A stretch of 64,000 nucleotides of DNA. Origin: Escherichia phage vB-EcoP-XT32. Below are positions 19,966 to 62,417 of this stretch, piece after piece. The notes under the pieces were generated by a model that worked only from the letters and a program-made list of their open reading frames with translations, searched no databases and was not told the DNA's origin. How positions within the stretch are numbered: the first letter of the stretch is position 1; every line of letters begins with the position of its first letter. Position numbers and translations under genes: made by a program. Location of the stretch: sequence record OR757435. The stretch is one strand, 5' to 3'.

Positions 19966-20028
19966 AGACCTATACAAGCTAGTGTGTAATGTATATTCTT
20001 TGTCTACATATAACAAGGAGGACAACCT

Positions 20029-40245: not shown

Positions 40246-40611
40246 TTAACGTCCCCAATCTTTATTGGTAAACGTTTTCAGTCTGTGACAGTTCGCACAA
40301 AGTGTTTGAAGGTTTTCTTCTCTGTTATCTTTGTGGTTACCATTTATGTGATCTACATCTAATTGGCAAGTGTGTTTAGGGATGAAACCGCACATCTCGC
40401 ACACTTCTTTCTTAAAGTCTACATATGGTGATTTATACCTTCTAGTACGCTCTCTGTGTGCATCCATATTCTCATACTCTCTTTTATTACAAGGAGAGCA
40501 CAAGGGTGCAAACTTTCCACCACCCTTTGATTTCTGAGGGTTCTTGTTGCACAAAACACAAAGACCACGAACATTAGATGGCTCTGTTTTTCTAAACCTC
40601 CATGTTCCCAT
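40246..40611 (-). CDS. HNH endonuclease
   Basis: CEMCG ... HTCQLDVDHINGNHKDNREENLQTLCANCH matches the HNH zinc-finger nuclease signature. Confidence 0.75.
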   Translation of the reverse strand: MGTWRFRKTEPSNVRGLCVLCNKNPQKSKGGGKFAPLCSPCNKREYENMDAHRERTRRYKSPYVDFKKEVCEMCGFIPKHTCQLDVDHINGNHKDNREENLQTLCANCHRLKTFTNKDWGR

Positions 40612-41852: not shown

Positions 41853-42671
41853 TTACCAAGTTTTTTCGAGCCACGACCAATCAAATAGGTCTTCCGGAGT
41901 CTGACCAACAAAGAGCAGCCGAGCATTCTCAAGCATCTTCTCTTCATCTTCAGTATCGAACTTCTTATAATATTCCATTCGTACTATATGATACATGGTC
42001 CACTTGTCTGTAACACCAGCCAACAACTTAGCTGCTGCTTTCTTCCCTATTCCTTGACGTCGAAGCTGGAGCTTACCTCCCCACATAACTTCTTTACGTT
42101 CTCCACATCCGGGGATATTATCTGTACCGTCTCCAATCAACATCTGATAGAAGAAGTTTTGCCACGAAACTAAATCAGATACATAGTGAGGAGGAACTTC
42201 TTTCTGTCTTTCTCCACAAGCCCAACGGTAGTGCCATCCGGGAGTTATCAACAAATCCTTGTCTCTAGTACAGATGATAGTGTTCTTATCTCTACGCTGT
42301 CTTTCAGCTAGTGCATCATCAGCCTCTCTCCCAAATACATCTATGTATTCATATTTACCTTTAATGTAATCACCAACGTTCTGCCAGTGAAAAGGTCTTT
42401 CTCCGGGAGGTCTGTTTGCCTTGTAGTCTTGCTGCTTAGCAACATCGAAACGGAAGTTACCACCTTCGCTGAAGTAGAACACAACCTTACTGCAACCTGA
42501 TCGAGCAATTATAGTATCTATCTTGTACTGAAGTCGTTCAATCATGAAATTGTAATCAACTGGAACACGTCCTGTGTCAAGGAAGGGATGCTCCTGAGTA
42601 AGAGCACCCACTTCATATCGAAGAACGTCAGCATCCACTATAGCTACTTCAGGGAGCTTAACTTCTTCCAT
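41853..42671 (-). CDS. 5'-3' exonuclease (FEN/flap endonuclease family)
   Basis: VDADVL, YKANR, GREADD and GDGTDNIPG match the conserved FEN family acidic clusters. Confidence 0.8.
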   Translation of the reverse strand: MEEVKLPEVAIVDADVLRYEVGALTQEHPFLDTGRVPVDYNFMIERLQYKIDTIIARSGCSKVVFYFSEGGNFRFDVAKQQDYKANRPPGERPFHWQNVGDYIKGKYEYIDVFGREADDALAERQRRDKNTIICTRDKDLLITPGWHYRWACGERQKEVPPHYVSDLVSWQNFFYQMLIGDGTDNIPGCGERKEVMWGGKLQLRRQGIGKKAAAKLLAGVTDKWTMYHIVRMEYYKKFDTEDEEKMLENARLLFVGQTPEDLFDWSWLEKTW

Positions 42672-46058: not shown

Positions 46059-46391
46059 TATTAATTTCCTTATTTAATTTGAAAGATTGTTGCTCTCTTT
46101 GAGCGGTTATGTATAGTATACATTACGCTTATACCGATAAGGGTACTATATAATATAAGTATCTTTGGTAGTAGATATAACACACTAGTAATGTATATAT
46201 TGTATAGCTAGTAAAGCTATTGCAGGCTTGTATATTGGGCAATCATCGTAACCCTTGCAAGTACCGAAGGGCAGGAGACACCTGCGAGATAAAAATAGAG
46301 AATTGAGGAAATCCTTGATTTAGGTTGAGGACTCCTAGGACTTTGATTCTCTATTAAAATCAAAAGAAAACTTAACTTAAAACAATAACTT

Positions 46392-47039: not shown

Positions 47040-47522
47040 TTAGGTAGTTAATTTATGATCTTCCTCCGCTCTGTTTCTAACAGAGACGGCTTCCTCTAGG
47101 GTTGAGAAAGTTCCTAGGTATTTAGTTTTACCTCTAATATGTATGTTGGCTATGTACTTCCCTCTTGAATTGAGGTATACGCCCTTAGCTCCTGATGTGT
47201 TGTTAGAGTTCAAACCCTTGTTCCAAGAATTATTCTCGTTGTTAACTTCTCTAAGGTTGCCTATGGAATCGTTGGAAGGGTTTCGATCAATGTGATCTAT
47301 TTGATCTTTAGGTAAAACACCATTAGCAAAATACCAAATGATGTGGTATCTGTAAATGGCTCTTCCTTTCAATCGAATAAGCACTCTTCCATCCTTTTTT
47401 GAAGTTCCTGCCTCGTCACCCCGCCTGCATTTTGTTCCGTTGTGAATTCTCCAGAACACTTTCCCAGATGATAAATCACAAACAAAGAACTCATCCAGAA
47501 GATCTTCTATCATATCATGCAA
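47040..47522 (-). CDS. HNH homing endonuclease with AP2-type DNA-binding domain
   Basis: QIDHIDRNPSNDSIGNLREV (HNH) plus SGAKGVYLNSRGKYIANIHIRGKTKYLGTFSTLEEA (AP2-like). Confidence 0.7.
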   Translation of the reverse strand: MHDMIEDLLDEFFVCDLSSGKVFWRIHNGTKCRRGDEAGTSKKDGRVLIRLKGRAIYRYHIIWYFANGVLPKDQIDHIDRNPSNDSIGNLREVNNENNSWNKGLNSNNTSGAKGVYLNSRGKYIANIHIRGKTKYLGTFSTLEEAVSVRNRAEEDHKLTT

Positions 47523-48917: not shown

Positions 48918-50762
48918 TTAGTGAGTTTGCATCCAATTCAATCCGATTTTACAATCAGAAGCTAGTTCACAGTGCATGTTTAGATATTCACCTGCCTTCT
49001 TAACACAAGTCTCAGCTATCTTCTTCATTTTATCAACGTCGTTACGGTTGACAGACCACTGTGCTTCATCATGATAATCGATCACTTTGTTTCCTCTAAT
49101 ATTCTGCTGCTCTACCCATTTGTTTGTAAACAGAATAGAGTACTTCATGACAATGGCACCTGCACTCTGAAGTAGAGTATTCAGTGCTTTATGCACCATA
49201 ACCTTACCAGTAGCATCTCGTCTCATAGTTAACTTACGACCATCCACACCTTCCAAAGTGCCTGATTCCGCTCGGGCCTGAACTCTCTCCAGTACGATAG
49301 GAATACAAGGACATTCCGCTAAGAATCGCTCTCTAAGAATTTCACCTTCTTGAGCACCCCCTCCAACTATTTCCCCAATTTTAGCTGCTCCTGCTCCATA
49401 CAGGAATCCATAGATGAAGGTTTTTGCATTGTCACGAGTTGGAAGCCCAGCGAGTTTCTGATTGTGGGAATGAATATCACCAGACAGCAGTACATCTCTG
49501 TATGTATAGGCAGCTTCTAAGCCTTTCTCAGCTCTTAGATATTTAACTTTGTCATTTTCTAGTTTAGCCTCCTCCATCATATCAAGGCACTCTTTTACTA
49601 GATAATGTACCAGCATACGCAACTCTAACCCAGAACCATCATACCCTAAGAATACTTCTTTACCAGCGGGTATGTAATATTTGTAAGCACCTACAGGCTT
49701 ATCTTTCTTCCCCGGCTTACCTTTCTCGTAAATTACGTTAGTACCTTTTCGTATATAACAACCATCAGGAACAACGTTAGTAATAACGAAAGGACGAGAG
49801 TGATCATCATCTGAGTTATAGTCAGACTCAAACAAACTGCGACACTCATGACCAAACAAACCACGGGAGGGAATATTAACCACGATACGATGTTTGAATC
49901 GAAAAGTCGGCGTAGCGCAGCTGTTAGCTTCTGCCGAAAGTTTACCATCTTCGCGTTCCTTTGCTATTAGTCCACTGATAAGACCTAGCCTGTGAGCCGC
50001 TACAACGCGTCTCTTAAGCAAACTTCCGACACTTCCTAACTCACCCCCTAACCCTTCTTCAAGAGTCTCCTCGAGGTTTGTAGGAGCTGTAGGCCACTTG
50101 TTTGAGGTAGCTAGTGCTATCTTAATCTCGTCAAAAGTGATAGGTCTACGTCGGTTAGGATTTAAACCTAAACCAAATACATAAGCCTTCATATAGTTCT
50201 TAGTCTTAAACCTAAAATGCTTTTCTAAGAACTTCCTAATATCAGCGTCAACCATCTCGGCTGTCTGCTTCTGTTTAGCATTACCTCGCATCCAAGCTGA
50301 ATACCATGCTTGGTATGTTCCATACTTTCGCATATCTTTCTTGATTTCAAAAGTATTCCAAGGTTTCTTTGATACGTTAAACTCTGGAGGAAGAAAACCC
50401 TCATCCATAAGGGCTTCTTTAACTCGTGCATCTTTCGATGGGTCAAAGTCTACGTATTCAACACAGGTGAATGCTCCACCAATGTCTTCTCTCTTAAGTC
50501 CAACTCTATCACAATAGGCTTGAGGCCATTTCTGTAAAGCTCCAGACTTCTTAAATGGTTTCATGTAAGTAGAGCCATCTAATCGCATCTTAGGTAAGAG
50601 AGGAATCAGTTCTTTGTCAATATTAACAATAATCTCTTTAAGGAGGTGAACATACCACCGAGCATTTCTTCGGTTGAAACTCACTCCGTGCTTCGCTTGC
50701 TTAGAGATTATATCAGCGACAGTCATCTCTGTCAAAAATGGGAGAGCGTCCGGGTTGCTCAC
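48918..50762 (-). CDS. DNA polymerase, family A (T7-like), polymerase domain only
   Basis: Motif A DGSGLELRMLVHY, motif B RDNAKTFIYGFLYGAG, motif C HDE; lacks 3'-5' exonuclease motifs, which are encoded at 60053..60607. Confidence 0.85.
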   Translation of the reverse strand: MSNPDALPFLTEMTVADIISKQAKHGVSFNRRNARWYVHLLKEIIVNIDKELIPLLPKMRLDGSTYMKPFKKSGALQKWPQAYCDRVGLKREDIGGAFTCVEYVDFDPSKDARVKEALMDEGFLPPEFNVSKKPWNTFEIKKDMRKYGTYQAWYSAWMRGNAKQKQTAEMVDADIRKFLEKHFRFKTKNYMKAYVFGLGLNPNRRRPITFDEIKIALATSNKWPTAPTNLEETLEEGLGGELGSVGSLLKRRVVAAHRLGLISGLIAKEREDGKLSAEANSCATPTFRFKHRIVVNIPSRGLFGHECRSLFESDYNSDDDHSRPFVITNVVPDGCYIRKGTNVIYEKGKPGKKDKPVGAYKYYIPAGKEVFLGYDGSGLELRMLVHYLVKECLDMMEEAKLENDKVKYLRAEKGLEAAYTYRDVLLSGDIHSHNQKLAGLPTRDNAKTFIYGFLYGAGAAKIGEIVGGGAQEGEILRERFLAECPCIPIVLERVQARAESGTLEGVDGRKLTMRRDATGKVMVHKALNTLLQSAGAIVMKYSILFTNKWVEQQNIRGNKVIDYHDEAQWSVNRNDVDKMKKIAETCVKKAGEYLNMHCELASDCKIGLNWMQTH

Positions 50763-50778
50763 TTTATACTCCTTTAAA

Positions 50779-51195
50779 TTATTGGTAAAGTAAATCTGTA
50801 AATGCTTGGTTATCTTCTACCACATCTAACATGGTAGCTTCGTCACTATAAGCCCTAACCATCCCATTGATAACTGTACGAGGAGGAGGTGGTGCATGGT
50901 TAGCCCCAGCTTCACGAGGTTGCTCTCGTACTAAATGGGCCACAACCCTTTGGTTAGCGACTTCTTCTCTTTCTCGAATAGCTCTCTGGATATAAGCTAA
51001 CTTCATACCCCAAACTTCTTCAAACTCTTGAGGGTGCTTATCACTGATAACTACATACTGACGATCAGGGATACCAGAGCGAATCTCTGACAACAGTTCA
51101 TGGAACAAATCAAGTTCGTGTTCAGTGAGATTCATTTCGATATCATCCCACTTGAGAACTAGGAATCTGTTTTGATGTCTAGCTGGTAATGGCAT
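50779..51195 (-). CDS. hypothetical protein
   Basis: 138-aa ORF immediately upstream of the polymerase gene. Confidence 0.45.
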   Translation of the reverse strand: MPLPARHQNRFLVLKWDDIEMNLTEHELDLFHELLSEIRSGIPDRQYVVISDKHPQEFEEVWGMKLAYIQRAIREREEVANQRVVAHLVREQPREAGANHAPPPPRTVINGMVRAYSDEATMLDVVEDNQAFTDLLYQ

Positions 51196-51197
51196 TC

Positions 51198-51355
51198 TAC
51201 TCCACCTCTACTTCAATGTAAGTTCTCTCACCAACGTCATCTTTTAAGACCCACGCCTTAGCATCTTCTTCAGACTTAAAAGCTTTCACAACGCTGTATC
51301 CACCTTCCCATTCATCACCGACCCAGCGCTTTCCTACGTAAATGTATTCTTTCAT
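51198..51355 (-). CDS. hypothetical small acidic protein (52 aa)
   Basis: ATG 51355 to TAG 51198, tightly packed between neighbours; below ORF-track cutoff. Confidence 0.3.
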
Positions 51356-51358
51356 CAC

Positions 51359-51634
51359 TCAACCTTTTGGGAATGGCGTTAAAGATTCCATAGCAGATTT
51401 AATTTCGCTATTGATTCGAGCATCTCGATAAGAGATAAACTTACCTTTGCTGTCACGTAACATCACATGGGTTCTGGCTGTTTTGTGAGGGAGCAATGTG
51501 ATACTGGTTGGGATAGTGTCAACCCCTGCAAGATATGTGTCAATAGTCTTGCTTTCAGTCAACAGATAAGACCAAGTTTTCTCCGGATGGTTAGGGTATA
51601 TGTCTCGAATCTGAACCATAGCTAATTTATTCAT
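51359..51634 (-). CDS. hypothetical protein (paralog pair member)
   Basis: Shares (H/P)KTART.V.LR...GKFISY ... FPKG motif with 51636..51884. Confidence 0.45.
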   Translation of the reverse strand: MNKLAMVQIRDIYPNHPEKTWSYLLTESKTIDTYLAGVDTIPTSITLLPHKTARTHVMLRDSKGKFISYRDARINSEIKSAMESLTPFPKG

Positions 51635-51635
51635 A

Positions 51636-51884
51636 TTAAACTCCTTTAGGGAATGGGATGAGGTTTTCTACTGCAACACGGAATTCTTTCTCTACATCTT
51701 TATTCTTATAAGAAATGAACTTCCCATCAGCACCACGGAGGATTACGTTAGTACGAGCTGTTTTTGGGTTATGACCAATCTGGTTTGCAATGAGATTAGC
51801 AATGCCATGATTGTTGGTGAATTTCCACTTAACCAGACGGACAGTCATTACATCAATAATAGTTACAGTTTTTACAATAGACAT
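51636..51884 (-). CDS. hypothetical protein (paralog pair member)
   Basis: Same motif as 51359..51634; tandem arrangement. Confidence 0.45.
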   Translation of the reverse strand: MSIVKTVTIIDVMTVRLVKWKFTNNHGIANLIANQIGHNPKTARTNVILRGADGKFISYKNKDVEKEFRVAVENLIPFPKGV

Positions 51885-51952
51885 AGTTATTACCTAAGAA
51901 GTTTAATTCGGTTTATATAAAAGAAAAGGCCACCCATTTGGGTAGCCTCATA

Positions 51953-52276
51953 TTACGAGGAGCTTAAAGCTCCTTTTCGCTTAGCAGCGCCAGCTGCCTT
52001 CCCAGCTCGATCTCCACTTTTGCCGCCAGCTGAACGATTTCCGCTGACTGTTTCAACACGTAAGTTGCTTGACGCATTAGAGCCTCCTGACTTGATGGCT
52101 CGCTTGTGTCCAACGTCTTTACCTCTGACAGCAGCTTTTCCATCGCGCTTTTCAACGATGCGACGTGCACGGTGGCGCTGAGCATCTCCGCTCTTGCTAC
52201 CAATTCCCGTTTCACCCCTTGCGATGGCGGTACGTCTTTCTTGTGCATAATCTCTCTTTCCTACATGGTCTGCCAT
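51953..52276 (-). CDS. basic Gly/Lys/Arg-rich protein (possible nucleic-acid binding)
   Basis: Perfect AAGGAG RBS before ATG 52276; 107 aa, highly basic, low complexity. Confidence 0.45.
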   Translation of the reverse strand: MADHVGKRDYAQERRTAIARGETGIGSKSGDAQRHRARRIVEKRDGKAAVRGKDVGHKRAIKSGGSNASSNLRVETVSGNRSAGGKSGDRAGKAAGAAKRKGALSSS

Positions 52277-52332
52277 TTAAAACTCCTTAATATATCAGTG
52301 TACACTAAGGAGTATACATTATAAGTTACTGT

Positions 52333-53070
52333 TTAAGCTTTCTTTTCCATTGCTTTAACAATAGCTTTACAGAAACCAGAACGAACAATGTCATCTGATT
52401 CGCCGTCTACAATCTCAGCGAACTCATACAGATCATGTTCATCAATAAAGTTAGTAGCCCAAGTAAGACCACTCTCACGACCACGCATATCATGCTGGTT
52501 TGTATCACCCATGCAGAACAGCTGAGAGGTTTCTCCCAATCGAGTCATGATTGAGAAGGCTTCATCTTTAGTGGTGTTCTGGAACTCATCAACGATAACG
52601 ATAGCATCATTGAAAGAACGACCACGGAGATACTCCAGAGGTACAAACTCAATGTTACTATTACCGAGCTGGCATTCATAGAACCCCTTACCATATCTCT
52701 GAGTAATAACATCAATGATTGGCATCAGATATGGTTCAAATTTCTCACGCATTCCTCCCGGAAGCAACCCAAGTGAGTTACCCATGCCAACAGAAGGGCG
52801 ACTCAGAATGATCTTCTGAATCTTACCACTCTTCAGTGCATCAATAACTGTGGAAGTGATTACAAAGGTCTTCCCGCAGCCCGCAGGAGCGTCTGTGAAC
52901 ACAACTTGTTTAGTCTTGATAGCATTGAGCAGTTCAGACTGGAACTGGTTCTGAGGGACTACAGGCTTTGCTAAAACCACCTCTTCAAACTCGCGCTTAC
53001 CCTTACGAGTGACAAGTGCTTCCCGACGAAGGTCTTTCCGTGATTCTTTCCGTGATTGACGACGACTCAT
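52333..53070 (-). CDS. phoH: PhoH-like ATPase
   Basis: Walker A DAPAGCGKT and overall length/pattern of PhoH-family proteins. Confidence 0.7.
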   Translation of the reverse strand: MSRRQSRKESRKDLRREALVTRKGKREFEEVVLAKPVVPQNQFQSELLNAIKTKQVVFTDAPAGCGKTFVITSTVIDALKSGKIQKIILSRPSVGMGNSLGLLPGGMREKFEPYLMPIIDVITQRYGKGFYECQLGNSNIEFVPLEYLRGRSFNDAIVIVDEFQNTTKDEAFSIMTRLGETSQLFCMGDTNQHDMRGRESGLTWATNFIDEHDLYEFAEIVDGESDDIVRSGFCKAIVKAMEKKA

Positions 53071-53279
53071 TTACGCTCTCCAATTTCTTCGTAATGACAT
53101 TCAGTAGTTAAACAATCTTTACAGATTGCTGTATAAACCCTGACGTTAGTAAATCGTTTGTTCTTCCCTTTGGTTGGAGAGCCTTTGGCAAGCTCTCTGA
53201 TAACCTTGTTACTTAAATGAAGGTTTGTCCCTTCACATCTAGAGCACTTCACCACAATGTCCATTCGGTAAGAGACCAC
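53067..53279 (-). CDS. hypothetical zinc-binding small protein
   Basis: CSRCEG ... CKDC...C motif; ATGA overlap with phoH. Confidence 0.4.
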   Translation of the reverse strand: MVSYRMDIVVKCSRCEGTNLHLSNKVIRELAKGSPTKGKNKRFTNVRVYTAICKDCLTTECHYEEIGERK

Positions 53280-53449
53280 AGAGAGTCACCTATGTGGGCA
53301 TTGTCATTCCTGATGAGGTCTTTGATTTTATCAACATTAGTTAAGTGAGTCACATTCAAAATATCCTCAACATCTGGGGCATATTTAAATATGGCAACAA
53401 TACTGTTGTGATCTTCAGCATATCTTTCTAGAACATAAACTACGCTCAT
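53249..53449 (-). CDS. hypothetical protein
   Basis: 66-aa ORF. Confidence 0.35.
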   Translation of the reverse strand: MSVVYVLERYAEDHNSIVAIFKYAPDVEDILNVTHLTNVDKIKDLIRNDNAHIGDSLWSLTEWTLW

Positions 53450-53769
53450 GCGAAGTTAACCTCTTTATGAAGTCTGTAAACAGCTGTCGCCATACAAGCA
53501 ACAGCTTCGTTATGTGGGAGATGCATCCCTGTAGAACCATCCCAATCTTTGAACTCATTGTCAAAGACTCCGGTAGGCTCTGGATACAAGGCTTGCAACT
53601 CAACCAAATCGTTAGCAACTTGTTGCCATTTATCATCAGACCAGATAGGGTCATCCAACCAGTAATACAAATAGGAATGGATGATCAATTGCCTTCTGTG
53701 CCGATTAATCACTTCAGCGGGACTTATTTCACTTCCATTTGAAGTCCTAAATGTATTACCGTCAATCAT
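53446..53769 (-). CDS. hypothetical protein
   Basis: 107-aa ORF; HSYLYYWLDDPIWSDDKWQQVANDLVELQALYPE loosely recalls the N-terminal helical region of NAD-dependent ligases, but no catalytic motif. Confidence 0.35.
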   Translation of the reverse strand: MIDGNTFRTSNGSEISPAEVINRHRRQLIIHSYLYYWLDDPIWSDDKWQQVANDLVELQALYPEPTGVFDNEFKDWDGSTGMHLPHNEAVACMATAVYRLHKEVNFA

Positions 53770-53972
53770 TATGAAAATTTCCGTTCTGTTAAAAAGTACT
53801 GAACTTCATTATCCGGAGACCAAACCTTTTCTCCATTTACCAGCTTCTTAGCATCTTCATATGAAGCACAATCCAAAGCAGGGTTCTCGGGTGTTGGTTT
53901 CCCTAGGAAATATTTCCAAGTCCAACGCTCTCCGTCATCATCTTGACAGTCAAGAGTCCATAATGTTTTCAT
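53769..53972 (-). CDS. hypothetical protein
   Basis: 67-aa ORF. Confidence 0.35.
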   Translation of the reverse strand: MKTLWTLDCQDDDGERWTWKYFLGKPTPENPALDCASYEDAKKLVNGEKVWSPDNEVQYFLTERKFS

Positions 53973-54187
53973 TTAACAACCTTAAATTTGAATGTTGTTG
54001 GGTGATAATAATGCAACCTGTTAATGGTGTGCTTTGTTTCAAGATATATCCTACAAGAGTGACACATAACATGAGACAGACCAGTTACAGGATTAGGTTT
54101 GAAGTTGATGATAGTCTTCTCTTTCTTACAGAAGCTACACACTTTATGTGTCATTAACTCTCCAAAGTTTTCTTCAGAGCTGCCCAC
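53969..54187 (-). CDS. hypothetical zinc-finger small protein
   Basis: CSFC ... CHSC motif. Confidence 0.4.
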   Translation of the reverse strand: MGSSEENFGELMTHKVCSFCKKEKTIINFKPNPVTGLSHVMCHSCRIYLETKHTINRLHYYHPTTFKFKVVK

Positions 54188-54801
54188 GAGATTGGGTAGA
54201 GTTTAGCCATCTCTTCATCCAGAGATTGAGCAAACACTCGAACTTCATACTGAGCATGGGAGGATAGTCGCTGACGACACAACTCAAACCAGCCATACAA
54301 AGAACCAGTCCAGTACCAAGTAGTTACCATACCTTGAGGTAAAACAAATCTAGCCTGTTCAGGAGCTACGAACTTAATTAATTCATCATAACTAGCAAGA
54401 GATGCCTCATATGCAGAGTTAAACAAAGCTAAAGCCTTTACCTCTTCATCTCCTTCAAGGAGTGTTCCAGAACCCGAATGTAGATCATCGGGGCGAGAGA
54501 AGATTTCTTTAGGTATAAAAATATCCACTGCTCCATCTTTATATCTACGACTCATCTCATTCCAAGAAAAACCAACTTGATGCTTCTGTAGCTGACGTGC
54601 AATTGCTATAGGGGCTTCGCATCTGAAGCTAGCTTGTGGGTGGCGAAAAGGGCTTACGTGTCGCTCTCGAGCTAGGAAGTTAATAAGCCGAGTATCACTT
54701 TCTTTCAACTCCTCTCTTTCTACCCCCATAGTCACACGAGCAGCATTGACCACAGTAAGGTCGGAACCGAAGTTATCAATTAGTGAAGCTTTGATTGTCA
54801 T
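54154..54801 (-). CDS. thyX: flavin-dependent thymidylate synthase ThyX homolog (divergent signature)
   Basis: HVSPFRH ... APIAIARQ ... KHQVGFSWNEMSRRY ... FIP and VLPQG...W...SHAQ align with ThyX; canonical RHR of the RHRx7S motif reads KHQ here. Confidence 0.7.
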   Translation of the reverse strand: MTIKASLIDNFGSDLTVVNAARVTMGVEREELKESDTRLINFLARERHVSPFRHPQASFRCEAPIAIARQLQKHQVGFSWNEMSRRYKDGAVDIFIPKEIFSRPDDLHSGSGTLLEGDEEVKALALFNSAYEASLASYDELIKFVAPEQARFVLPQGMVTTWYWTGSLYGWFELCRQRLSSHAQYEVRVFAQSLDEEMAKLYPISWAALKKTLES

Positions 54802-55267
54802 TTATATAAGTCTCCTTGACTTTATTATATGCTTTAGAGGCTTCTTCTATAGTTGAGAAGAGTCCTATGTGCTTAGATTTGAATACCGCCCGGTAAGCAA
54901 TAGAGCCACTTTTCCTTCTATGAAGAGTTACTCCAATCACTCCGGTTGATAAGTTGTTACTTTGGGCTATTTTGTTGAGTCCATTCCCTGACCTAGTAGT
55001 CCCTCTAAGGTTCTCTCTTTTGTTATTTAGTCTGTTGCGGTCTACATGGTCCACTTCTTCAGGAAGCAATCCAGTGTCCCACCAGTAAGCAAGTCGATGA
55101 GCATAATACCTAACACCTTTATAAACGATTCTCAAATACCCGTTGGTATTTATAGAACCAGCTATAGACCCTTTGCGCCCTTTTCCATAAGTTTTAACCC
55201 ATCGGAAATCTCCAGTCAAAGGGTCATAATCAAGAGCTTCTTTTATTGATGGATCAATATCATTCAT
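54776..55267 (-). CDS. HNH homing endonuclease with AP2-type domain
   Basis: EVDHVDRNRLNNKRENL (HNH) plus TGVIGVTLHRRKSGSIAYRAVFKSKHIGLFSTIEEA (AP2-like). Confidence 0.7.
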   Translation of the reverse strand: MNDIDPSIKEALDYDPLTGDFRWVKTYGKGRKGSIAGSINTNGYLRIVYKGVRYYAHRLAYWWDTGLLPEEVDHVDRNRLNNKRENLRGTTRSGNGLNKIAQSNNLSTGVIGVTLHRRKSGSIAYRAVFKSKHIGLFSTIEEASKAYNKVKETYINDNQSFTN

Positions 55268-55282
55268 CCGTGAATTTCCTTA

Positions 55283-55492
55283 TTAATATTCTTTTACATA
55301 ACAAACCACTAAGGTTCCCTTCTCTGACAATGTTGATTTATGTAAGCTTACTTTACTATAAATCTTTGGAGACATCTTAAGAGCCTTCTTAAAACGGCGA
55401 GCATCTTTACGAGTAGCAAAGTGCTCTGTAACAGGTATAGCCGGGTCTTGGTAGAGGTAATATACCACCGTCCAATATTTTTTCATAATCAA
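55283..55492 (-). CDS. hypothetical small protein (MKKxW paralog family)
   Basis: MKKYWTVVYY ... ATRKDARRFKK shared with 57448..57962 genes. Confidence 0.4.
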   Translation of the reverse strand: MIMKKYWTVVYYLYQDPAIPVTEHFATRKDARRFKKALKMSPKIYSKVSLHKSTLSEKGTLVVCYVKEY

Positions 55493-55761
55493 ACACCTAG
55501 GGCAGTAGTTAAGAATGCTTTCAGGTTTGCTTCGGTCTGCATACCAGAGAGACTATAGTGTGCACCACTATTACGGTCAGGTACAACGAAAGCAGGGATG
55601 CTTCTTACACCATACTTAACAGCTTGTTCACGACCATCACCTTCAAGGATGTTAATCTCTTCTACTTCTACATCGAACTCCTTAACAACCTTCTCAAAGG
55701 TAGGAGCCATTGCTTTACATGGAGCACACTGATCGCTATAAAACTTAATCACTTTAGACAT
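55489..55761 (-). CDS. thioredoxin-like protein
   Basis: Start set to ATG 55761 (AAGGAA RBS); CAPC active-site motif at the thioredoxin position (YSDQCAPCKAMAP), cis-Pro context SIPAFVV. Confidence 0.7.
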   Translation of the reverse strand: MSKVIKFYSDQCAPCKAMAPTFEKVVKEFDVEVEEINILEGDGREQAVKYGVRSIPAFVVPDRNSGAHYSLSGMQTEANLKAFLTTALGV

Positions 55762-55762
55762 T

Positions 55763-55939
55763 CTATTCCTTGTTAATAAACAGGTTGATATGACGTTGGG
55801 TAGCAGGAACAACAATAAAAGATTTATACTGACCTTTTGCTAAGTCATGAGCAATCTTCTTTGTTTGACCAAGACCCATCACACAGCCACTAACGATAAT
55901 GGCATGTGCTTGTAATTCTTCAGGTAGGTTTAGTTTCAC
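55763..55939 (-). CDS. hypothetical small protein (58 aa)
   Basis: GTG start with AAGGAAA RBS; stop 1 nt before the thioredoxin start; below ORF-track cutoff. Confidence 0.25.
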   Translation of the reverse strand: MKLNLPEELQAHAIIVSGCVMGLGQTKKIAHDLAKGQYKSFIVVPATQRHINLFINKE

Positions 55940-55951
55940 TCTTTGGTTTCC

Positions 55952-56137
55952 TTATAGCATACAAAGAATAATAACAAGAGGTAGTGTTATAGCAAAATGT
56001 ACCAGAACAACACTGCCTAGCTTGATAGCTTTAACATCCTCTTCTGCTGGGTTTTCTTTAATTGCTAAATTTCGAGCTTTATATATAACAGTACCAACTA
56101 TTAACGACCACACGGCCCACACAATCAGTGAAATCAT
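55952..56137 (-). CDS. small two-helix membrane protein (paralog A)
   Basis: 61 aa with two hydrophobic segments; paralogous to 56147..56326. Confidence 0.45.
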   Translation of the reverse strand: MISLIVWAVWSLIVGTVIYKARNLAIKENPAEEDVKAIKLGSVVLVHFAITLPLVIILCML

Positions 56138-56146
56138 ATCAAACCC

Positions 56147-56326
56147 TTATGCAGTCAGGAGGTGAAGCAGGAATGGGATAACAACAGCTACGACAACCAT
56201 GATGGTTGATGCTGTTTGAATCTCACCTTTCTTGTCAGGAGTTTCTTCAATAAGCTTGCCAGAAGCCCAATAGATACCACCACCAATAAAGACAGCCCAA
56301 ATACCCCATACGATTGCTGATAACAT
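56147..56326 (-). CDS. small two-helix membrane protein (paralog B)
   Basis: ATG 56326; MLSAIVWGIWAVFIGGGIYWASGKLIEETPDKKGEIQTASTIMVVVAVVIPFLLHLLTA; in a different frame from track ORF 56188..56442. Confidence 0.4.
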   Translation of the reverse strand: MLSAIVWGIWAVFIGGGIYWASGKLIEETPDKKGEIQTASTIMVVVAVVIPFLLHLLTA

Positions 56327-56387
56327 ATATCTATATCCTTATAAATAAGTTCGCCCCACCTCGGGTTAGGAGACAGGGCGGAGGTTT

Positions 56388-56951
56388 TTAGTAAGACACA
56401 TCGCCACTTGAGTGGGACATGTTGCTCTTGACGAAGTAGCAATACTTGCCAAGACCTTCATTAATTTCTTGAAGCATACTCTGATCAACTGGATAAGTGG
56501 CTAAATCACCATCAAACTCATCCATCTTCTCAATAATACACATCAAGGTCATGCACATATCAGAGAGCATACCGTCCATATCTAGGTCAGCATTACCCTC
56601 TGAGAACCAAGCATGGGAGAGATAATTGGCTGCTGTGGCGTCCACTTTAACACAGTGGTAACGCATACGTTCAGCAATACGATCTCCTACTTGTCGTGCG
56701 TAATCTTCCAGCTCATCAAACATACCATGAACACCCTGAAATCCTGCACCAGAGACGTTCCAATGGTAGTTTTTAGCTTTGATATGCAAGAGTTCTATGT
56801 TAGCTTGTAAGCAGCTCAGGATGTGTTCTAGGCTGTTTCCACTAATCATACCCTGCATTGTTTCAAGGCGAGAGATTGAAAGCTCTGATCGGTCTAACAT
56901 ATTATATTCGGCACGACCAATCTCAGGTAAATCAAAAACATTCTTATGCAT
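56388..56951 (-). CDS. dps: Dps-like ferritin-fold protein
   Basis: LHIKAKNYHWNVSGAGFQGVHGMFDELEDYARQVGDRIAERM matches the Dps signature (KN.HWNV.G..F..VH..FDE ... D.IAER); start codon is 2 nt from the N-run, so upstream context is unknown. Confidence 0.65.
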   Translation of the reverse strand: MHKNVFDLPEIGRAEYNMLDRSELSISRLETMQGMISGNSLEHILSCLQANIELLHIKAKNYHWNVSGAGFQGVHGMFDELEDYARQVGDRIAERMRYHCVKVDATAANYLSHAWFSEGNADLDMDGMLSDMCMTLMCIIEKMDEFDGDLATYPVDQSMLQEINEGLGKYCYFVKSNMSHSSGDVSY

Positions 56952-56952
56952 T

Positions 56953-57447
56953 NNNNNNNNNNNNNNNNNNNNNNNNNNNNNNNNNNNNNNNNNNNNNNNN
57001 NNNNNNNNNNNNNNNNNNNNNNNNNNNNNNNNNNNNNNNNNNNNNNNNNNNNNNNNNNNNNNNNNNNNNNNNNNNNNNNNNNNNNNNNNNNNNNNNNNNN
57101 NNNNNNNNNNNNNNNNNNNNNNNNNNNNNNNNNNNNNNNNNNNNNNNNNNNNNNNNNNNNNNNNNNNNNNNNNNNNNNNNNNNNNNNNNNNNNNNNNNNN
57201 NNNNNNNNNNNNNNNNNNNNNNNNNNNNNNNNNNNNNNNNNNNNNNNNNNNNNNNNNNNNNNNNNNNNNNNNNNNNNNNNNNNNNNNNNNNNNNNNNNNN
57301 NNNNNNNNNNNNNNNNNNNNNNNNNNNNNNNNNNNNNNNNNNNNNNNNNNNNNNNNNNNNNNNNNNNNNNNNNNNNNNNNNNNNNNNNNNNNNNNNNNNN
57401 NNNNNNNNNNNNNNNNNNNNNNNNNNNNNNNNNNNNNNNNNNNNNNN
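56953..57447. other. assembly gap (495 N)
   Basis: Continuous run of n characters. Confidence 1.
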
Positions 57448-57556
57448 GTTTCTTAGCAATACGAGCCTCTTTGCGAGTGTCAAACAATTTGATGCTATCT
57501 TTTCTCGTGTGTTGATCAAGATCCCAAACAACACGAATCGCCCACATCTTTTTCAT
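57448..57556 (-). CDS. hypothetical small protein (MKKxW family), 3' end lost in assembly gap
   Basis: N-terminal MKKMWAIRVVWDLDQHTRKDSIKLFDTRKEARIAKK then N-run. Confidence 0.35.
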
Positions 57557-57765
57557 TAGTAATGTACCTTTCCGCTGATATAAACACGACCAGAAGAATA
57601 CTCCTTGGCCTTATGGATACTGATACTATTGACCACGTCACCAGTAAGCATAGTCTTTTTAAAATCTCGAGCCTGTTGACGAGTAGGAAGTGCAGTCATA
57701 GTCATACCACCTGATGCCCACTTAATCTTTGCTAACCAAAACTGTCTCATAGTGATTGGTCTCAT
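57556..57765 (-). CDS. hypothetical small protein (MKKxW family)
   Basis: 69-aa ORF; ...TRQQARDFKK motif. Confidence 0.4.
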   Translation of the reverse strand: MRPITMRQFWLAKIKWASGGMTMTALPTRQQARDFKKTMLTGDVVNSISIHKAKEYSSGRVYISGKVHY

Positions 57766-57962
57766 TAATAATAAACCTTGCTGTTGGCAAAAAGAGCACC
57801 TTCGTTATTCACAATAGCTTTTCCTATTGTAACCTTATTGAGTCTAAAAGTAGACTTGTATTGGTTTTTGACCCTACGGGCGTGTTCTCGAGTGTTAATA
57901 AAATCTACAGCTACCAAGTCTCCAGTCGTATCATCATGTACACGAACAATCCACTTTTTCAT
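57765..57962 (-). CDS. hypothetical small protein (MKKxW family)
   Basis: MKKWIVRVHDD ... NTREHARRVKNQ. Confidence 0.4.
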   Translation of the reverse strand: MKKWIVRVHDDTTGDLVAVDFINTREHARRVKNQYKSTFRLNKVTIGKAIVNNEGALFANSKVYY

Positions 57963-58165
57963 TTTACTAAACCCTTCATATAGTTATAAAGATCGTTAGA
58001 GGCTTTACCCCATTCAAGGTGCTTCTTATCCATATAGCTCTTACAAGCTTCTTTACTGCTTTCGACGCATATATCAAATTGATGACATGCTCGACCAAAT
58101 GTCATAGCTTTTAATTGAACCTCGGTAGTCAAACCTTTCAGTTCTTGGAACTCTTCTTCAGTCAT
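57959..58165 (-). CDS. hypothetical protein
   Basis: 68-aa ORF, ATGA overlap with neighbour. Confidence 0.4.
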   Translation of the reverse strand: MTEEEFQELKGLTTEVQLKAMTFGRACHQFDICVESSKEACKSYMDKKHLEWGKASNDLYNYMKGLVK

Positions 58166-58699
58166 TTACACACCTTTAGATGCAACTACACCTTCAGAGT
58201 TATTATAACGCCCCTTCACTGCATAGGAATGTTCCCCTGCATGAGAGTGCTCAAACATCACCATCTGACCAACACGCATACCAGCACGAACTCGTAAACT
58301 GTGGTGCTTGGTTACGTTATGGAATTCAAATGTCAGCTTACTGCTATTAAATCCTGCATCTGCCCAACCGGCGTGAAGGTGGTTCAAACCACAACGAGCC
58401 ATAGACGAACGCAGAACAAACAGACTTGAGATGTTATCTGGAAGATTAAACTCCTCCATGGAGTGAGCCAAGAAGAACTGACCCGGAGTGATAACCAAAC
58501 CCTCTTCAGGAATTTTTACTTCCTTCCACTGAAGATTTTCTTTCGCATCAATATCAACGATGCCATCAGCCTGTTCTTCAACAAGGATAGTATCACCAAT
58601 ACGGATATCCACACTAGCAGCGTTAACATACTTATGCTCCGCATCCAGATAGCCATTATCAATTACATCGTGTAGTTCAACACTTCCTAGTAAACTCAT
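58166..58699 (-). CDS. dcd: dCTP deaminase
   Basis: AASVDIRIGD, HAGWADAGFNSSKLTFEF and C-terminal YNNSEGVVASKG match the Dcd signature (VD.RLG, GW.D.G..G...LE, Y..QQGAVASR). Confidence 0.75.
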   Translation of the reverse strand: MSLLGSVELHDVIDNGYLDAEHKYVNAASVDIRIGDTILVEEQADGIVDIDAKENLQWKEVKIPEEGLVITPGQFFLAHSMEEFNLPDNISSLFVLRSSMARCGLNHLHAGWADAGFNSSKLTFEFHNVTKHHSLRVRAGMRVGQMVMFEHSHAGEHSYAVKGRYNNSEGVVASKGV

Positions 58700-58708
58700 T
58701 TTTATTCC

Positions 58709-59785
58709 TTAGTTATTTGTTTCCATGTCAAAAGAAAATCCACGACCCGCTTCATCGGCAAACCGAACTGTACGGGTTTGAGGCTCTAATACTTCAGGGT
58801 TGTTAGCAACAAACCGATCAGCGAGACTTTGGTTGACAGTTTCAGCGAGTTCCCCATGAGAGGGAATATTAAGATCGGCGAGATTATCAACCACATCTTG
58901 GGCCACGTCTTCATCAGTCCATACAGCCCTAACAGGTGCGTTGAAACTCTGACCAGAGAACTGGTGACGGCTAACAGTCAAACCATTTGATTGACCATTA
59001 GAACGTCTAGACAACCACTGCTCAAATGAATCGCCAGTAACACCAAGAGCTTCTTCAAAAGATGTTCTACGAGTAGAGCTTAGATTTCGTGCTTCGTTTG
59101 CTCGACGTCTTGCAGGGGCTACAAACACCCCTTCAACTGCATTGTGCCGATTAGGTTCATCTTCTCGACCAAGGAGATCTCCTCCTGTATTAGTTGTTAA
59201 GTTTGTCAACCCTTCAGACCAATATGCACGAATCTGGCTAGAGCCGTGAATGATTGACATTAACTGAATCTCTTCATAAGGGATTCCAAAGAATATACTC
59301 ATGTCTCGGTTAACACAATATTGAGCACTTGTTGTATCCTCAATAAGAGAAACCTGACCTAATCCACTAACCAGATGACTAACTGGCTGAGGTGTAGGAA
59401 GGTATCGAGTTTGGGCCATATATTGATATGCAACAGATGGAGCTGAGAATCTTAACACTTGTGAATTAGGCCACTTTTTGTGAACGTATCTGATTTCACG
59501 ACTAGAAACAACCACCGGGCAAGGAGCGGTCATAGCCAAATATCCATGAGGAGTCATGAATAGGTTTTCAAGGGTCATCGCACCACGACACATCATAGGA
59601 AAATTATCCAATACCTCTTCGATAGAAGTGGGATAATTAAACATGAATTGGATTCGAGTTCCCTGCCACTGAAATTCAATGATATCAGTGAATGTTAATT
59701 GGGAAGTTCCTGTATATGGTTCATCTGTAGTTTCAGCAAGAAGAGATGAATACTCAATATCTTGTGACTCTAGCCACTCTTTCAC
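58709..59785 (-). CDS. hypothetical protein (358 aa), partner of the upstream nucleotidyltransferase
   Basis: GTG start in ATGA-type overlap with the NTase stop; no ATG in frame upstream; no recognised motif. Confidence 0.45.
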   Translation of the reverse strand: MKEWLESQDIEYSSLLAETTDEPYTGTSQLTFTDIIEFQWQGTRIQFMFNYPTSIEEVLDNFPMMCRGAMTLENLFMTPHGYLAMTAPCPVVVSSREIRYVHKKWPNSQVLRFSAPSVAYQYMAQTRYLPTPQPVSHLVSGLGQVSLIEDTTSAQYCVNRDMSIFFGIPYEEIQLMSIIHGSSQIRAYWSEGLTNLTTNTGGDLLGREDEPNRHNAVEGVFVAPARRRANEARNLSSTRRTSFEEALGVTGDSFEQWLSRRSNGQSNGLTVSRHQFSGQSFNAPVRAVWTDEDVAQDVVDNLADLNIPSHGELAETVNQSLADRFVANNPEVLEPQTRTVRFADEAGRGFSFDMETNN

Positions 59786-60051
59786 ATTGCTTTCAATCTC
59801 ACGCCCAAGAGCTTGCCACTGAAAGTGTTTTGAGTTCTTGGTGTCTGTCCTCTGACAATAAAGATATCGATGTCATGAGGTGCTATGTTATTAAGAACAG
59901 CGTCACGAACAGCCCCACCAGTAATGATGGGACAGATACCATCTGGAATCAAGTTGTTGTTAATCAGCTGTTCAATGAAGTGACGACCGACAGTGATATC
60001 AGGTTGTTGAGCAACCTTATCTTCAATTCGGTTAATCGGGATAACAATCAT
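59782..60051 (-). CDS. pol-beta-superfamily nucleotidyltransferase (CCA-adding/poly(A) polymerase-type head motif)
   Basis: GGAVRDAVLNNIAPHDIDIFI matches the GGxVRD...DxD signature of class II tRNA nucleotidyltransferases; ORF stops 24 aa after the motif. Confidence 0.5.
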   Translation of the reverse strand: MIVIPINRIEDKVAQQPDITVGRHFIEQLINNNLIPDGICPIITGGAVRDAVLNNIAPHDIDIFIVRGQTPRTQNTFSGKLLGVRLKAM

Positions 60052-60052
60052 T

Positions 60053-60607
60053 TTACATTTTCCAATATAATGAAGGTGGGTCGTAAGGGTCAAATCCTGT
60101 GAGTTCACACAAGTATTTATAAACCTTAACGGTTAAGTTAACGTCCTGTTCACAGTAAGTAAACATATCTTCAGTGAAAGCATCCCATGCTTCCTCTTGC
60201 TCACCGTAGTCTCCTTTAAGTTCCTCTAAGAACTCACCCCATTGCTTCAAACCATGACCTCTTGGGCCATGTCTAGGGTCACCTTTCGGATACTCAGGAC
60301 TGTCACCAATACGGTCAGGTTTAAGATATCGACTAAGACACAAGGTGTCGAAGACGTTAAAACGATAGTCGATCAGATTGGGATACATCTTCTTCAGAGC
60401 ACAAAGGTCGAAGTCAATAATATTATGACCTACGAGCACATCAGCTTCTGTAAGTTTACGAACCCCATCTTCAATTTGGTGAGGCCGATAGCCCCACCTT
60501 TCACCAGTTTCAACATCGAAGATGTAAATACACCATACTTTAGTTATGTCATCGTATAGTGCATTACTCTCGATATCAAAAGCAAACACTTTCTTTTTCT
60601 TTACCAC
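60053..60607 (-). CDS. 3'-5' proofreading exonuclease domain of T7-like DNA polymerase, separately encoded
   Basis: Exo I FDIESNAL, Exo II HNIIDFD, Exo III YCEQDV; alignable along its length with the T7 gene 5 N-terminal domain. Confidence 0.75.
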
Positions 60608-62391
60608 GGTGAAGCTCCATCTGCTTGATTGACGAGAGAAGCTGCATCCTCTCCGTTAGTCAAAACGAATGGATTATCTTCATCAACTTCAAAGTCTTCC
60701 CTTTCTACAAGTCTACCGGTTTCGCTGATATACTTAGTATAGCAGACACCTGTCTGACCGTAGTTACGTTCTTTCAGTAATCGAATGACTGAGAGGTTCT
60801 TAGCTAAGCCGTCAGCTTGCTTGTCACGCTCAAAGCCAATGATACACTGACACCAACGCATAAGGGAACGAGAGCCAGTGAACTGTACTTCACGTACCTG
60901 TCCACCTTCTTCGTGAGGAGCACCACCTGCCGGAGCATTAAGGTGAGATAGCACGAAAGCGGTAAAGTCTAACTCTTTACACATACCAGCAAGCTCTGAA
61001 GCAATCTTACTGATCTCAGTGTTAATCTCTGAAGGTGTTAAATGAGATACCAGAGCGGTAATGTTATCGAGGATGATGAACTTACACTGGTTTTCAACTA
61101 CCCAGAAACGGATACACTGTTTAATGTCTTCCCATTCGTTCTGCCCGAAGTTGTCATACAAGAAGAATTTGTCTGCATAACGAAGTGCTTCATTACGCAA
61201 ATCCTCTTCATCATATTCAACATCTGGTCGGTGGAAAGGAATTGATGCTGACTTACCAGCGATGTTCTTAACAGACATGCCTACCTTCTCTTCCAAGAAG
61301 AAGCCACCTCCATTAAAACCATGCTCTAAGCACAGATGAGCAACCAGCTCGTGAGCAATTAGTGTTTTACCACTACCTACACCACCACCGATGGCTACCA
61401 CCTCTCCCCATCGAATACCGAAGGTCATCTCATTCAGAGTCTTCCACGGATATGGAATACCCCACTCCGCTTTCTTCAGAGCATCATCAAGGCAATCAAA
61501 GATTGTTACAGCACCAGCAGGAGATTCCCGCTTTGCTGAATACTTGAGAATGTTGAATAACTCTTGACCACGACCAGACAGAAGCATGTCATTCGCATCC
61601 TTAATCTCTTTCTCCACACCGTTGTATGGGAAAGTTCCTTTAGGAATACGAGCAAACTTGACATGAGGGAATAAAGAACGACCTTTTGTTAAAGCTATCT
61701 CACCTGCATCGTCATTGTCCATGCAGAGCACAACCTCCTCAAAACCATTTACGAAGTCTCGATTACGAGACAACACAGAAGAGATTGAACCTGCACCGAA
61801 CGGTAAAGAAACACATGCTGGCTTAATATTTGTTGCATTTGTAAAAGCTGTAAGGACATGGAAACCAGACATACAAGATAGCGGGTCTTCAAAAATAAAC
61901 AGCTTCTTGTTGTACACATCTCCACGTTGAGCTTGTGCCATACCAAATAAGTCTGCTTCTTTCACACTGCCAACGTAATAAAACTTCTTACTATCTAGCA
62001 GCTTAACCTCGTAACCAACAATGTTTCCATCACGTTCACGAGGAAAGAAGTAGCTGTCTGGAGTCTGACCATCAGTCTGACTTAGACCAATGCGACACTC
62101 AAAACGCTCTGATACAGCTTTAGGGATTAAACGTCGAGTAAGTTCACCCTGAGGAAGCTCTAAGCAATCATCTAAGACTTCTCTTAACTCTTCAGGGGAT
62201 AACTCTTTCTTCTCATTTGGAGTAGGTGTAGTGCCCTTTTCGAACACTTCGTAATTCCCACAACGGTTACAACTTCCCCACTCCTCACCTGTCTCTTCGT
62301 TACGGAAGAGAATCATGTGGTTGTGGGTTTTATCACGACCATGAGAGATACATTCCTTACAACCTGTGTCTCCCAAAATGATCTTTGACAT
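60601..62391 (-). CDS. primase-helicase (T7 gp4-like)
   Basis: N-terminal Cys4 zinc ribbon (CKEC ... CNRC), TOPRIM-like acidic region, helicase Walker [10 protein letters not shown]; AAGGAGG RBS. Confidence 0.85.
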
Positions 62392-62417
62392 GCTCTTCCT
62401 CCTTGGAATCCTTGAGC

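Follow-up and report, generated by a model that had tools for sequence, protein, structure and literature searches.

The window analysed here, a stretch of 64,000 nucleotides (nt) from Escherichia phage vB-EcoP-XT32 (record OR757435), encodes a T7 gp5-type family A DNA polymerase in which the 3′-5′ exonuclease and the polymerase are separate genes, with the break located in the linker between the two domains. An earlier model-made reading of the same DNA (the sequence-only reading) had proposed these two genes, and both open reading frames (ORFs) are present at the positions it gave, on the minus strand. The first, at 60053..60607, encodes a predicted 3′-5′ proofreading exonuclease subunit of 184 residues, which is the orthologue of phi32_74 of phage phiEco32 and corresponds to residues 1 to about 200 of T7 gp5. 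The second, at 48918..50762, encodes a family A DNA polymerase domain protein of 614 residues, which is the orthologue of phi32_53, corresponds to gp5 residues from about 204 to 704 and is devoid of an exonuclease domain. Both ORFs start with GTG. A Shine-Dalgarno-like AAGGAG is positioned 6 nt 5′ of the polymerase GTG, and a Shine-Dalgarno-like GGAG is found 5′ of the exonuclease GTG.

The exonuclease ORF matches the Pfam family DNA_pol_A_exo1 (PF01612) with an expectation value (E) of 1.2e-8 and a score of 35.3 bits, against a cut-off of 23.6. When it was compared with all PDB sequences, T7 gp5 chains were the sole matches (E 1.5e-10), with residues 9-163 aligned to gp5 3-182; BLASTP against T7 gp5 itself pairs residues 7-180 with gp5 1-196 at 32% identity (E 2e-16). 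In the alignment, D11/E13 (Exo I), D67 (Exo II) and Y151/D155 (Exo III) are equivalent to D5/E7, D65 and Y170/D174 of T7, respectively. The 184-residue protein has DxE, D and YxxxD in the order found in DEDD 3′-5′ exonucleases of the Pol A type, and the earlier description of it as a protein with Exo I, II and III of the T7 gp5 N-terminal type is well founded. Dedicated families of the 'DNA polymerase exonuclease subunit' exist in PHROGs and are matched by this protein with E 1e-75 and 7e-38, while NCBIfam has no model for it.

The polymerase ORF has a single Pfam match, DNA_pol_A, at residues 364-611 (E 1e-20), and no exonuclease domain was detected in a Pfam scan of the 614 residues. Chains of T7 gp5 are also its best PDB matches (E about 9e-37), and the three aligned segments are collinear and cover gp5 from about 295 to 703. 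In the BLASTP comparison with T7 gp5, residues 271-614 are aligned with 412-704 (E 4e-41) and residues 72-134 with 293-362. D375/E380 of motif A, R443/K447/Y451 of motif B and H564/D565/E566 of motif C correspond to T7 D475/E480, R518/K522/Y526 and H653/D654/E655, respectively. The three motifs DxxxLE, RxxxKxxxYG and HDE are collinear, as in family A polymerases of the T7 gp5 type, and the C-terminal His of T7 gp5 is kept. The larger protein carries motifs A, B and C, in agreement with what had been claimed for it, and no exonuclease domain of its own accompanies them. An unrelated DnaQ family was also considered for the 184-residue protein and is ruled out, given that its PDB matches are solely T7 gp5 and its Pfam family is DNA_pol_A_exo1.

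The relationship of the two proteins to gp5 was derived from an L-INS-i alignment with T7 gene 5 as the reference, in which the exonuclease and polymerase of each phage were concatenated. The exonuclease ends at gp5 residue 203 and the polymerase begins at residue 204, which is in the interdomain linker. The two proteins also match abutting parts of the same PHROG profile, phrog_17 ('DNA polymerase'), the exonuclease at 668-826 and the polymerase at 836-1233. The two genes thus tile gp5 without overlap, as had been anticipated. Their divergence from T7 is equal, with an identity of 30.7% for the exonuclease and 31.1% for the polymerase. A tblastn search with T7 gp5 against the whole window, outside which roughly 13 kb of the genome lies, gave two places only, the exonuclease and polymerase ORFs. 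As regards a second, complete gp5-like gene in that outer part, the complete genomes of close relatives have just one place per record.

By its gene content and sequence similarity, the phage of the window is a Kuravirus, a phiEco32-like E. coli podophage of the Gordonclarkvirinae. Its polymerase shares 99.8% identity with the enzyme of vB-EcoP-XT18 (XT18, Kuravirus) and 87-88% with its counterparts in dozens of further kuraviruses. The identity to phiEco32 is 95% for the exonuclease (phi32_74) and 87% for the polymerase (phi32_53). In phiEco32, phi32_53 is labelled 'DNA polymerase; lacks 5'-3' and 3'-5' exonuclease domains' and phi32_74 is labelled 'DNA polymerase exonuclease subunit; contains 3'-5' exonuclease domain'. 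XT18 is annotated with a 'DNA polymerase exonuclease subunit' beside the primase/helicase and a 'DNA polymerase' 9.8 kb downstream, and the same two product names are used in RefSeq for 172-1 and SU10. The window has both orthologues of the Kuravirus split polymerase, and the order of primase/helicase, exonuclease, nucleotide-metabolism block and polymerase on one strand agrees with the gene order of phiEco32, XT18 and 172-1. Taken more widely, all Kuravirus/Gordonclarkvirinae phages (phiEco32, XT18, 172-1, SU10, NJ01 and others) have orthologues of the two genes and resemble the window in strand, order, helicase-exonuclease overlap and core interval genes.

The split is described as common to the phiEco32-like group and LUZ24-like phages (PMC9965538, 2023), where 7-11, Privateer, Vp_R1 and BUCT695 are also listed, and it was reported in 2012 for every LUZ24-group phage (PMC3517423); a passage of the latter paper credits the 2008 phiEco32 genome paper with the E. 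coli case. The split polymerase is already published and annotated for the whole phage group, and it has little weight as a discovery, being present in the GenBank/RefSeq entry of the type phage and in later papers. What is added here is that the position of the break coincides exactly with the linker between the gp5 domains, that the same break together with synteny in three phage lineages implies one old event, and that a scenario driven by HNH endonucleases is rejected.

The order of primase/helicase, exonuclease and polymerase extends beyond the closest relatives, as the sequence-only reading had suggested should be checked, and is found in phiEco32, XT18, 172-1, A24 and p2-10_Or1. In Cronobacter phage A24 (Grimontviridae), the primase/helicase gene is followed by an overlapping exonuclease gene, then by 7.7 kb with a single HNH gene, and then by the polymerase gene. 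In the PaP3-like Pseudomonas phage p2-10_Or1 (Bruynoghevirus), the order is the same and the two genes have 1.7 kb and five small non-HNH genes between them. Like the window, A24 and the LUZ24/PaP3-like phages (Bruynoghevirus) have separate genes with the exonuclease straight after the primase/helicase, and adjacency or overlap of helicase and exonuclease is seen in phiEco32, A24 and PaP3-like phages alike. Different from the window, the PaP3-like (1.7 kb) and A24 (7.7 kb) intervals hold other cargo, and the exonuclease identity is 35-49%. In the cyanopodovirus S-SBP1, the exonuclease and polymerase ORFs are adjacent with a 40-nt overlap.

In the concatenated alignment, the junction is positioned at gp5 203-214 in A24, p2-10_Or1, S-SBP1 and Kuravirus. 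The polymerases of Kuravirus, A24 and PaP3-like phages have common insertions relative to T7, for example a segment before motif A, and the three also have a common upstream module of amidoligase, glutamine amidotransferase and gamma-glutamyl cyclotransferase. These common features argue for a single old fission, after which the interval grew. In contrast, the polymerase of S-SBP1, a marine cyanopodovirus which is broken at the same linker (T7 203/204), is without the insertions common to the Kuravirus, A24 and PaP3 lineage, and for this reason its split is probably an independent event.

The gap between the exonuclease and polymerase genes is 9,290 nt (50763..60052) rather than the 8.3 kb given earlier, and it contains about 25 ORFs instead of about ten genes; the corresponding interval of XT18 has 27 coding sequences (CDS). 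The ThyX, Dcd, PhoH, thioredoxin and HNH genes in the interval have Pfam matches above gathering scores, and the Dps-like gene has a partial Ferritin-like match above gathering score and is labelled 'member of the Dps family' in phiEco32. All six had been named correctly by the sequence-only reading, but the AP2 domain which it assigned to the HNH protein was not found by Pfam at E<=0.01. A nucleotidyltransferase and a protein with an NAD-ligase Ia-like domain are also within the interval. The HNH endonuclease gene (54776..55267, minus strand; Pfam HNH_3, 1.2e-10) is inserted between the thioredoxin and ThyX genes, which are adjacent in phiEco32 with no HNH gene at that position. Judged by this comparison, it is a variable passenger of the interval and not part of the polymerase. 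In phiEco32, which is split in the same way, 7,991 nt with 20 CDS and no HNH gene separate the two genes, and the interval is longer here (9.29 kb versus 7.99 kb) because of the added HNH gene and a few small ORFs. Across the whole replication module, at least three HNH genes were noticed on the minus strand (40246-40611, 47040-47522 and 54776-55267), and their presence varies among close relatives.

The interval also contains the sole N-run of the window, 495 N at 56953..57447. It takes the place of the homologue of phi32_68, the 3′ end of that of phi32_69 and P68, a middle promoter which has been studied experimentally in phiEco32. A three-way alignment pairs the N-run with 494 nt in phiEco32 and 982 nt in XT18, and XT18 is longer owing to an extra HNH gene beside the Dps-like gene. 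This second HNH gene of XT18 is absent in phiEco32 and, from the length of the N-run, is probably absent here too. Collinearity with XT18 extends over 26 kb, with an identity of 99.5% in 34930-56952 and of 93.4% in 57448-61458 on the other side of the N-run. To the right of the N-run, the closest relative is phage 172-1, with 96.3% identity. On these identities, the switch of closest relative across the N-run is ordinary recombinational mosaicism among kuraviruses.

Three explanations of the separation other than an old fission have to be weighed. The separation might be an artefact, in that the contig is chimeric or wrongly assembled or the polymerase gene is interrupted by a sequencing error, with an intact gp5-like gene in the true genome. 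The N-run within the interval, the fall in XT18 identity across it and a 13-nt frameshifting deletion in the adjacent nucleotidyltransferase gene, a sign that the sequence is erroneous or decaying locally, would all be accommodated by an artefact. However, this gene order recurs in dozens of complete genomes that were sequenced independently, with 63 records covering at least 80% of 57448-62400 and 242 covering at least 80% of the polymerase, and the exonuclease and polymerase ORFs each have their own ribosome-binding site, start and stop. The concern about a chimeric assembly, which had been raised because of the N-run, is also allayed by the N-run itself, since its length agrees within 1 nt with the segment of the HNH-less phiEco32 and its flanks are collinear with relatives. 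We consider an artefact extremely unlikely. The second explanation, put forward by the sequence-only reading, is that repeated insertion of HNH homing endonucleases split an intact polymerase gene and drove the halves apart. It could draw on the one HNH gene in the interval here and the two in XT18, and homing endonucleases do target the polymerase gene in relatives. Nevertheless, phiEco32 and PaP3-like phages such as p2-10_Or1 have the split without any HNH gene between the two genes, and A24 has it with a single one. Among near-identical phages, the HNH genes are present in some and absent in others, and most of the interval consists of conserved nucleotide-metabolism genes. The mobile elements of the relatives Bas93, LAMP and PE006 are all inside the polymerase domain (none of the three at the exonuclease/polymerase junction); for Bas93 and LAMP the annotation gives intervening sequences and a joined CDS, and for PE006 separate CDS flanking a homing endonuclease. 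Given that their presence differs, the gene at 54776-55267 being variable and the second one being present in XT18 but not in phiEco32, the HNH genes are late, variable arrivals in a pre-existing interval, and there is very little chance that they were the drivers of the split. Finally, split-intein polymerases exist, as exemplified by the cyanobacterial DnaE, which is the reason for considering that the two halves might be rejoined after expression via a split intein or RNA trans-splicing. Nothing was found in its favour, and its probability is vanishingly small. The alignment with gp5 continues to the end of the exonuclease and resumes at the beginning of the polymerase, and intein halves would have no space there; an Rfam scan of the window found no family at gathering score (a transfer RNA scan was likewise empty), and about 25 independent ORFs stand between the two genes. 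With a junction free of extra residues and no Rfam intron in the window, both a split intein and trans-splicing are rejected.

A comparison with T7 and with the replicase of the host puts the two proteins into a functional frame. T7 gp5 (PDB 1T7P) has the same two domains, catalytic residues and C-terminal His, with about 31% identity in both halves, and T7, as is the case here, has a gp4-type primase/helicase as neighbour and a separate gene for a 5′-3′ exonuclease. Unlike the proteins of the window, T7 gp5 is a single chain of 704 residues with a longer thioredoxin-binding loop, and T7 uses host thioredoxin whereas the present phage encodes its own. In E. coli Pol III, the polymerase alpha (DnaE) and the DEDD proofreading exonuclease epsilon (DnaQ) are separate polypeptides which assemble in trans. 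The likeness to alpha/epsilon is functional only: Pol III is an unrelated, family C polymerase, its genes are far apart on a cellular chromosome, and the exonuclease of the window is of the Pol A exo1 or gp5 type, not of the DnaQ-epsilon type.

The gene for the T7 gp4-type primase/helicase is at 60601..62391 on the minus strand and was recognized by Pfam DnaB_C (9.9e-11) together with a sub-threshold Toprim match. The GTG of the exonuclease is within GTGGTAA, the TAA of which is the stop codon of the primase/helicase, and this 7-nt overlap of stop and start suggests translational coupling of the two genes. The C-terminus of the primase/helicase is an acidic tail with a terminal aromatic residue (...ADGASPW), which we take to recall the acidic C-terminal tail of T7 gp4 that contacts gp5.

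The phage thioredoxin gene is at 55489..55761 on the minus strand (Pfam Thioredoxin, 2e-13), with M19 of the listed ORF as the likely start, which gives 90 residues as in XT18 (273 nt). By likeness to T7 gp5 and host thioredoxin, it is a speculative candidate for the processivity partner of the polymerase; a hypothesis of this kind, with thioredoxin as the processivity factor, was made for phage Privateer (PMC7881722). In addition, a 5′-3′ exonuclease or RNase H-like protein is encoded at 41853..42671 on the minus strand (Pfam 5_3_exonuc_N, 6.5e-6, below gathering score). It is the orthologue of phi32_33, the separate 5′-3′ exonuclease of phiEco32, and its orthologues are called 'RNaseH' in XT18 and 'similar to exonuclease domain of DNA polymerase I' in phiEco32. 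The 5′-3′ exonuclease is thus a third Pol I-type activity on a gene of its own, a point which is also made in PMC9965538.

Are the two halves expressed at the same time? In the transcription maps of phiEco32 and SU10, the early class comprises CDS 69-125 and the middle class CDS 25-68 (PMC4281155). Promoters dependent on gp36, the phage sigma, are positioned 5′ of genes 68, 58 and 40 (PMC8948821), and their motif contains AATGTA (PMC12276001). In the window, the published gp36-dependent middle promoter motif TAATGTATA (PMC4281155, PMC8948821) was found at 52313..52321 on the minus strand, 5′ of the phi32_58 homologue and inside the exonuclease-polymerase interval (P58-like). It occurs five times in the window against 0.67 expected, on the plus strand at 19987, 35733 and 46189 and on the minus strand at 46117 and 52313; the site at 46117-46125 (minus strand) is 5′ of the phi32_40 homologue (P40-like), and the equivalent of P68 falls in the N-run. 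By homology with the phiEco32 and SU10 maps, the exonuclease would be an early gene, as would the helicase, and the polymerase, located 3′ of P68 and P58, would be a middle gene.

Taking all these together, we propose that the window most probably encodes a Kuravirus gp5-type polymerase which arose by ancient fission in the linker and the halves of which are presumed to reassemble non-covalently. A gp5-type gene would have been divided between its 3′-5′ exonuclease and polymerase domains; the exonuclease half would have stayed directly behind the primase/helicase, the position of gene 5 in T7-like genomes, and the polymerase half would have come to lie 9.3 kb downstream on the same strand as the nucleotidyltransferase, Dcd, Dps-like, thioredoxin, ThyX, ligase-like and PhoH genes and small ORFs accumulated between the halves. 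From T7 biology and by analogy to Pol III alpha/epsilon, the exonuclease and polymerase may associate non-covalently to give a gp5-like proofreading polymerase working with the gp4-type primase/helicase, and the thioredoxin encoded by the phage might act as the processivity factor. Such assembly in trans is plausible by analogy. Indirect support comes from purifying selection on the two halves, which retain their catalytic residues in three phage lineages, and from their equal divergence from T7. Several points weigh against this proposal. The literature found holds no biochemistry on this polymerase or on an exonuclease-polymerase complex. The thioredoxin-binding loop (T7 262-338) is only partly kept, its C-terminal two-thirds being aligned at low identity with about 21 residues fewer, which makes the link to thioredoxin speculative. 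The temporal classes are carried over from phiEco32 and SU10 by homology, and according to the SU10 paper the early unit has no terminator, in which case read-through may blur the classes.

An alternative interpretation is that the 184-residue DEDD exonuclease is not a stable polymerase subunit and acts alone or via the primase/helicase, its constant and translationally coupled neighbour. It might then serve as a trans-proofreader at the fork or have a different early role, for example in the processing of DNA ends or primers or in the breakdown of host DNA. In Kuravirus, A24 and PaP3-like phages, the gene for the exonuclease either overlaps that for the helicase or comes directly after it, at a distance of 1.7-9.8 kb from the polymerase, and by homology the two genes fall into the early and middle classes. 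On the other hand, helicase-exonuclease adjacency is simply the ancestral order of T7 gene 4 to gene 5, the equal divergence of the two proteins from T7 is as expected of co-evolving parts of one enzyme, and the closest outgroup homologues of the exonuclease are the N-terminal domains of fused T7-like polymerases. We therefore regard an exonuclease independent of the polymerase as unlikely. It is also doubtful, though conceivable to a slightly lesser degree, that the fission itself is functional rather than neutral: an early exonuclease, coupled in translation to the primase/helicase, would reach the replisome via the helicase and the polymerase would follow later from phage-sigma promoters. 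The balance between proofreading and synthesis, and with it fidelity, would then shift during infection. Alternatively, the early exonuclease may have a second, pre-replication role.

Three minor observations concern the two genes and their surroundings. A perfect sigma-70 promoter with an extended -10 (TTGACA, 17 nt, TGaTATAAT; 12/12) is located at 50707-50735 on the minus strand, in codons 9-18 of the polymerase. No other perfect match exists in the 64 kb, and this one is kept in XT18, Bas93, PE006 and LAMP. A transcript from it would be without the polymerase start codon, and its conservation may only mirror the coding sequence.

The nucleotidyltransferase gene that adjoins the exonuclease (phi32_73 homologue, 58709-60051, minus strand) lacks 13 nt at about 59822 which are present in 172-1, XT18 and phiEco32, and this deletion shifts the frame. 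The gene is intact at 451-453 residues in 172-1 and XT18, and frameshifted here as compared with phiEco32, giving ORFs of about 89 residues (from ATG 60051) and 358 residues; the upstream fragment would have 108 residues if begun at GTG 60108. The frameshifted gene is either a real pseudogene or the result of a sequence error.

The polymerase is a mosaic relative to gp53 of phiEco32, with about 98% identity in residues 1-385 and about 70% in residues 386-614 (48918-49607), and the switch is just past motif A. The C-terminal part from about residue 386 is thus a diverged allele as compared with that of phiEco32. In Bas93, LAMP and PE006, intervening sequences with or without a homing endonuclease are located in the 3′ half of the polymerase gene, and the mosaicism would fit an endonuclease-associated exchange of flanking sequence.

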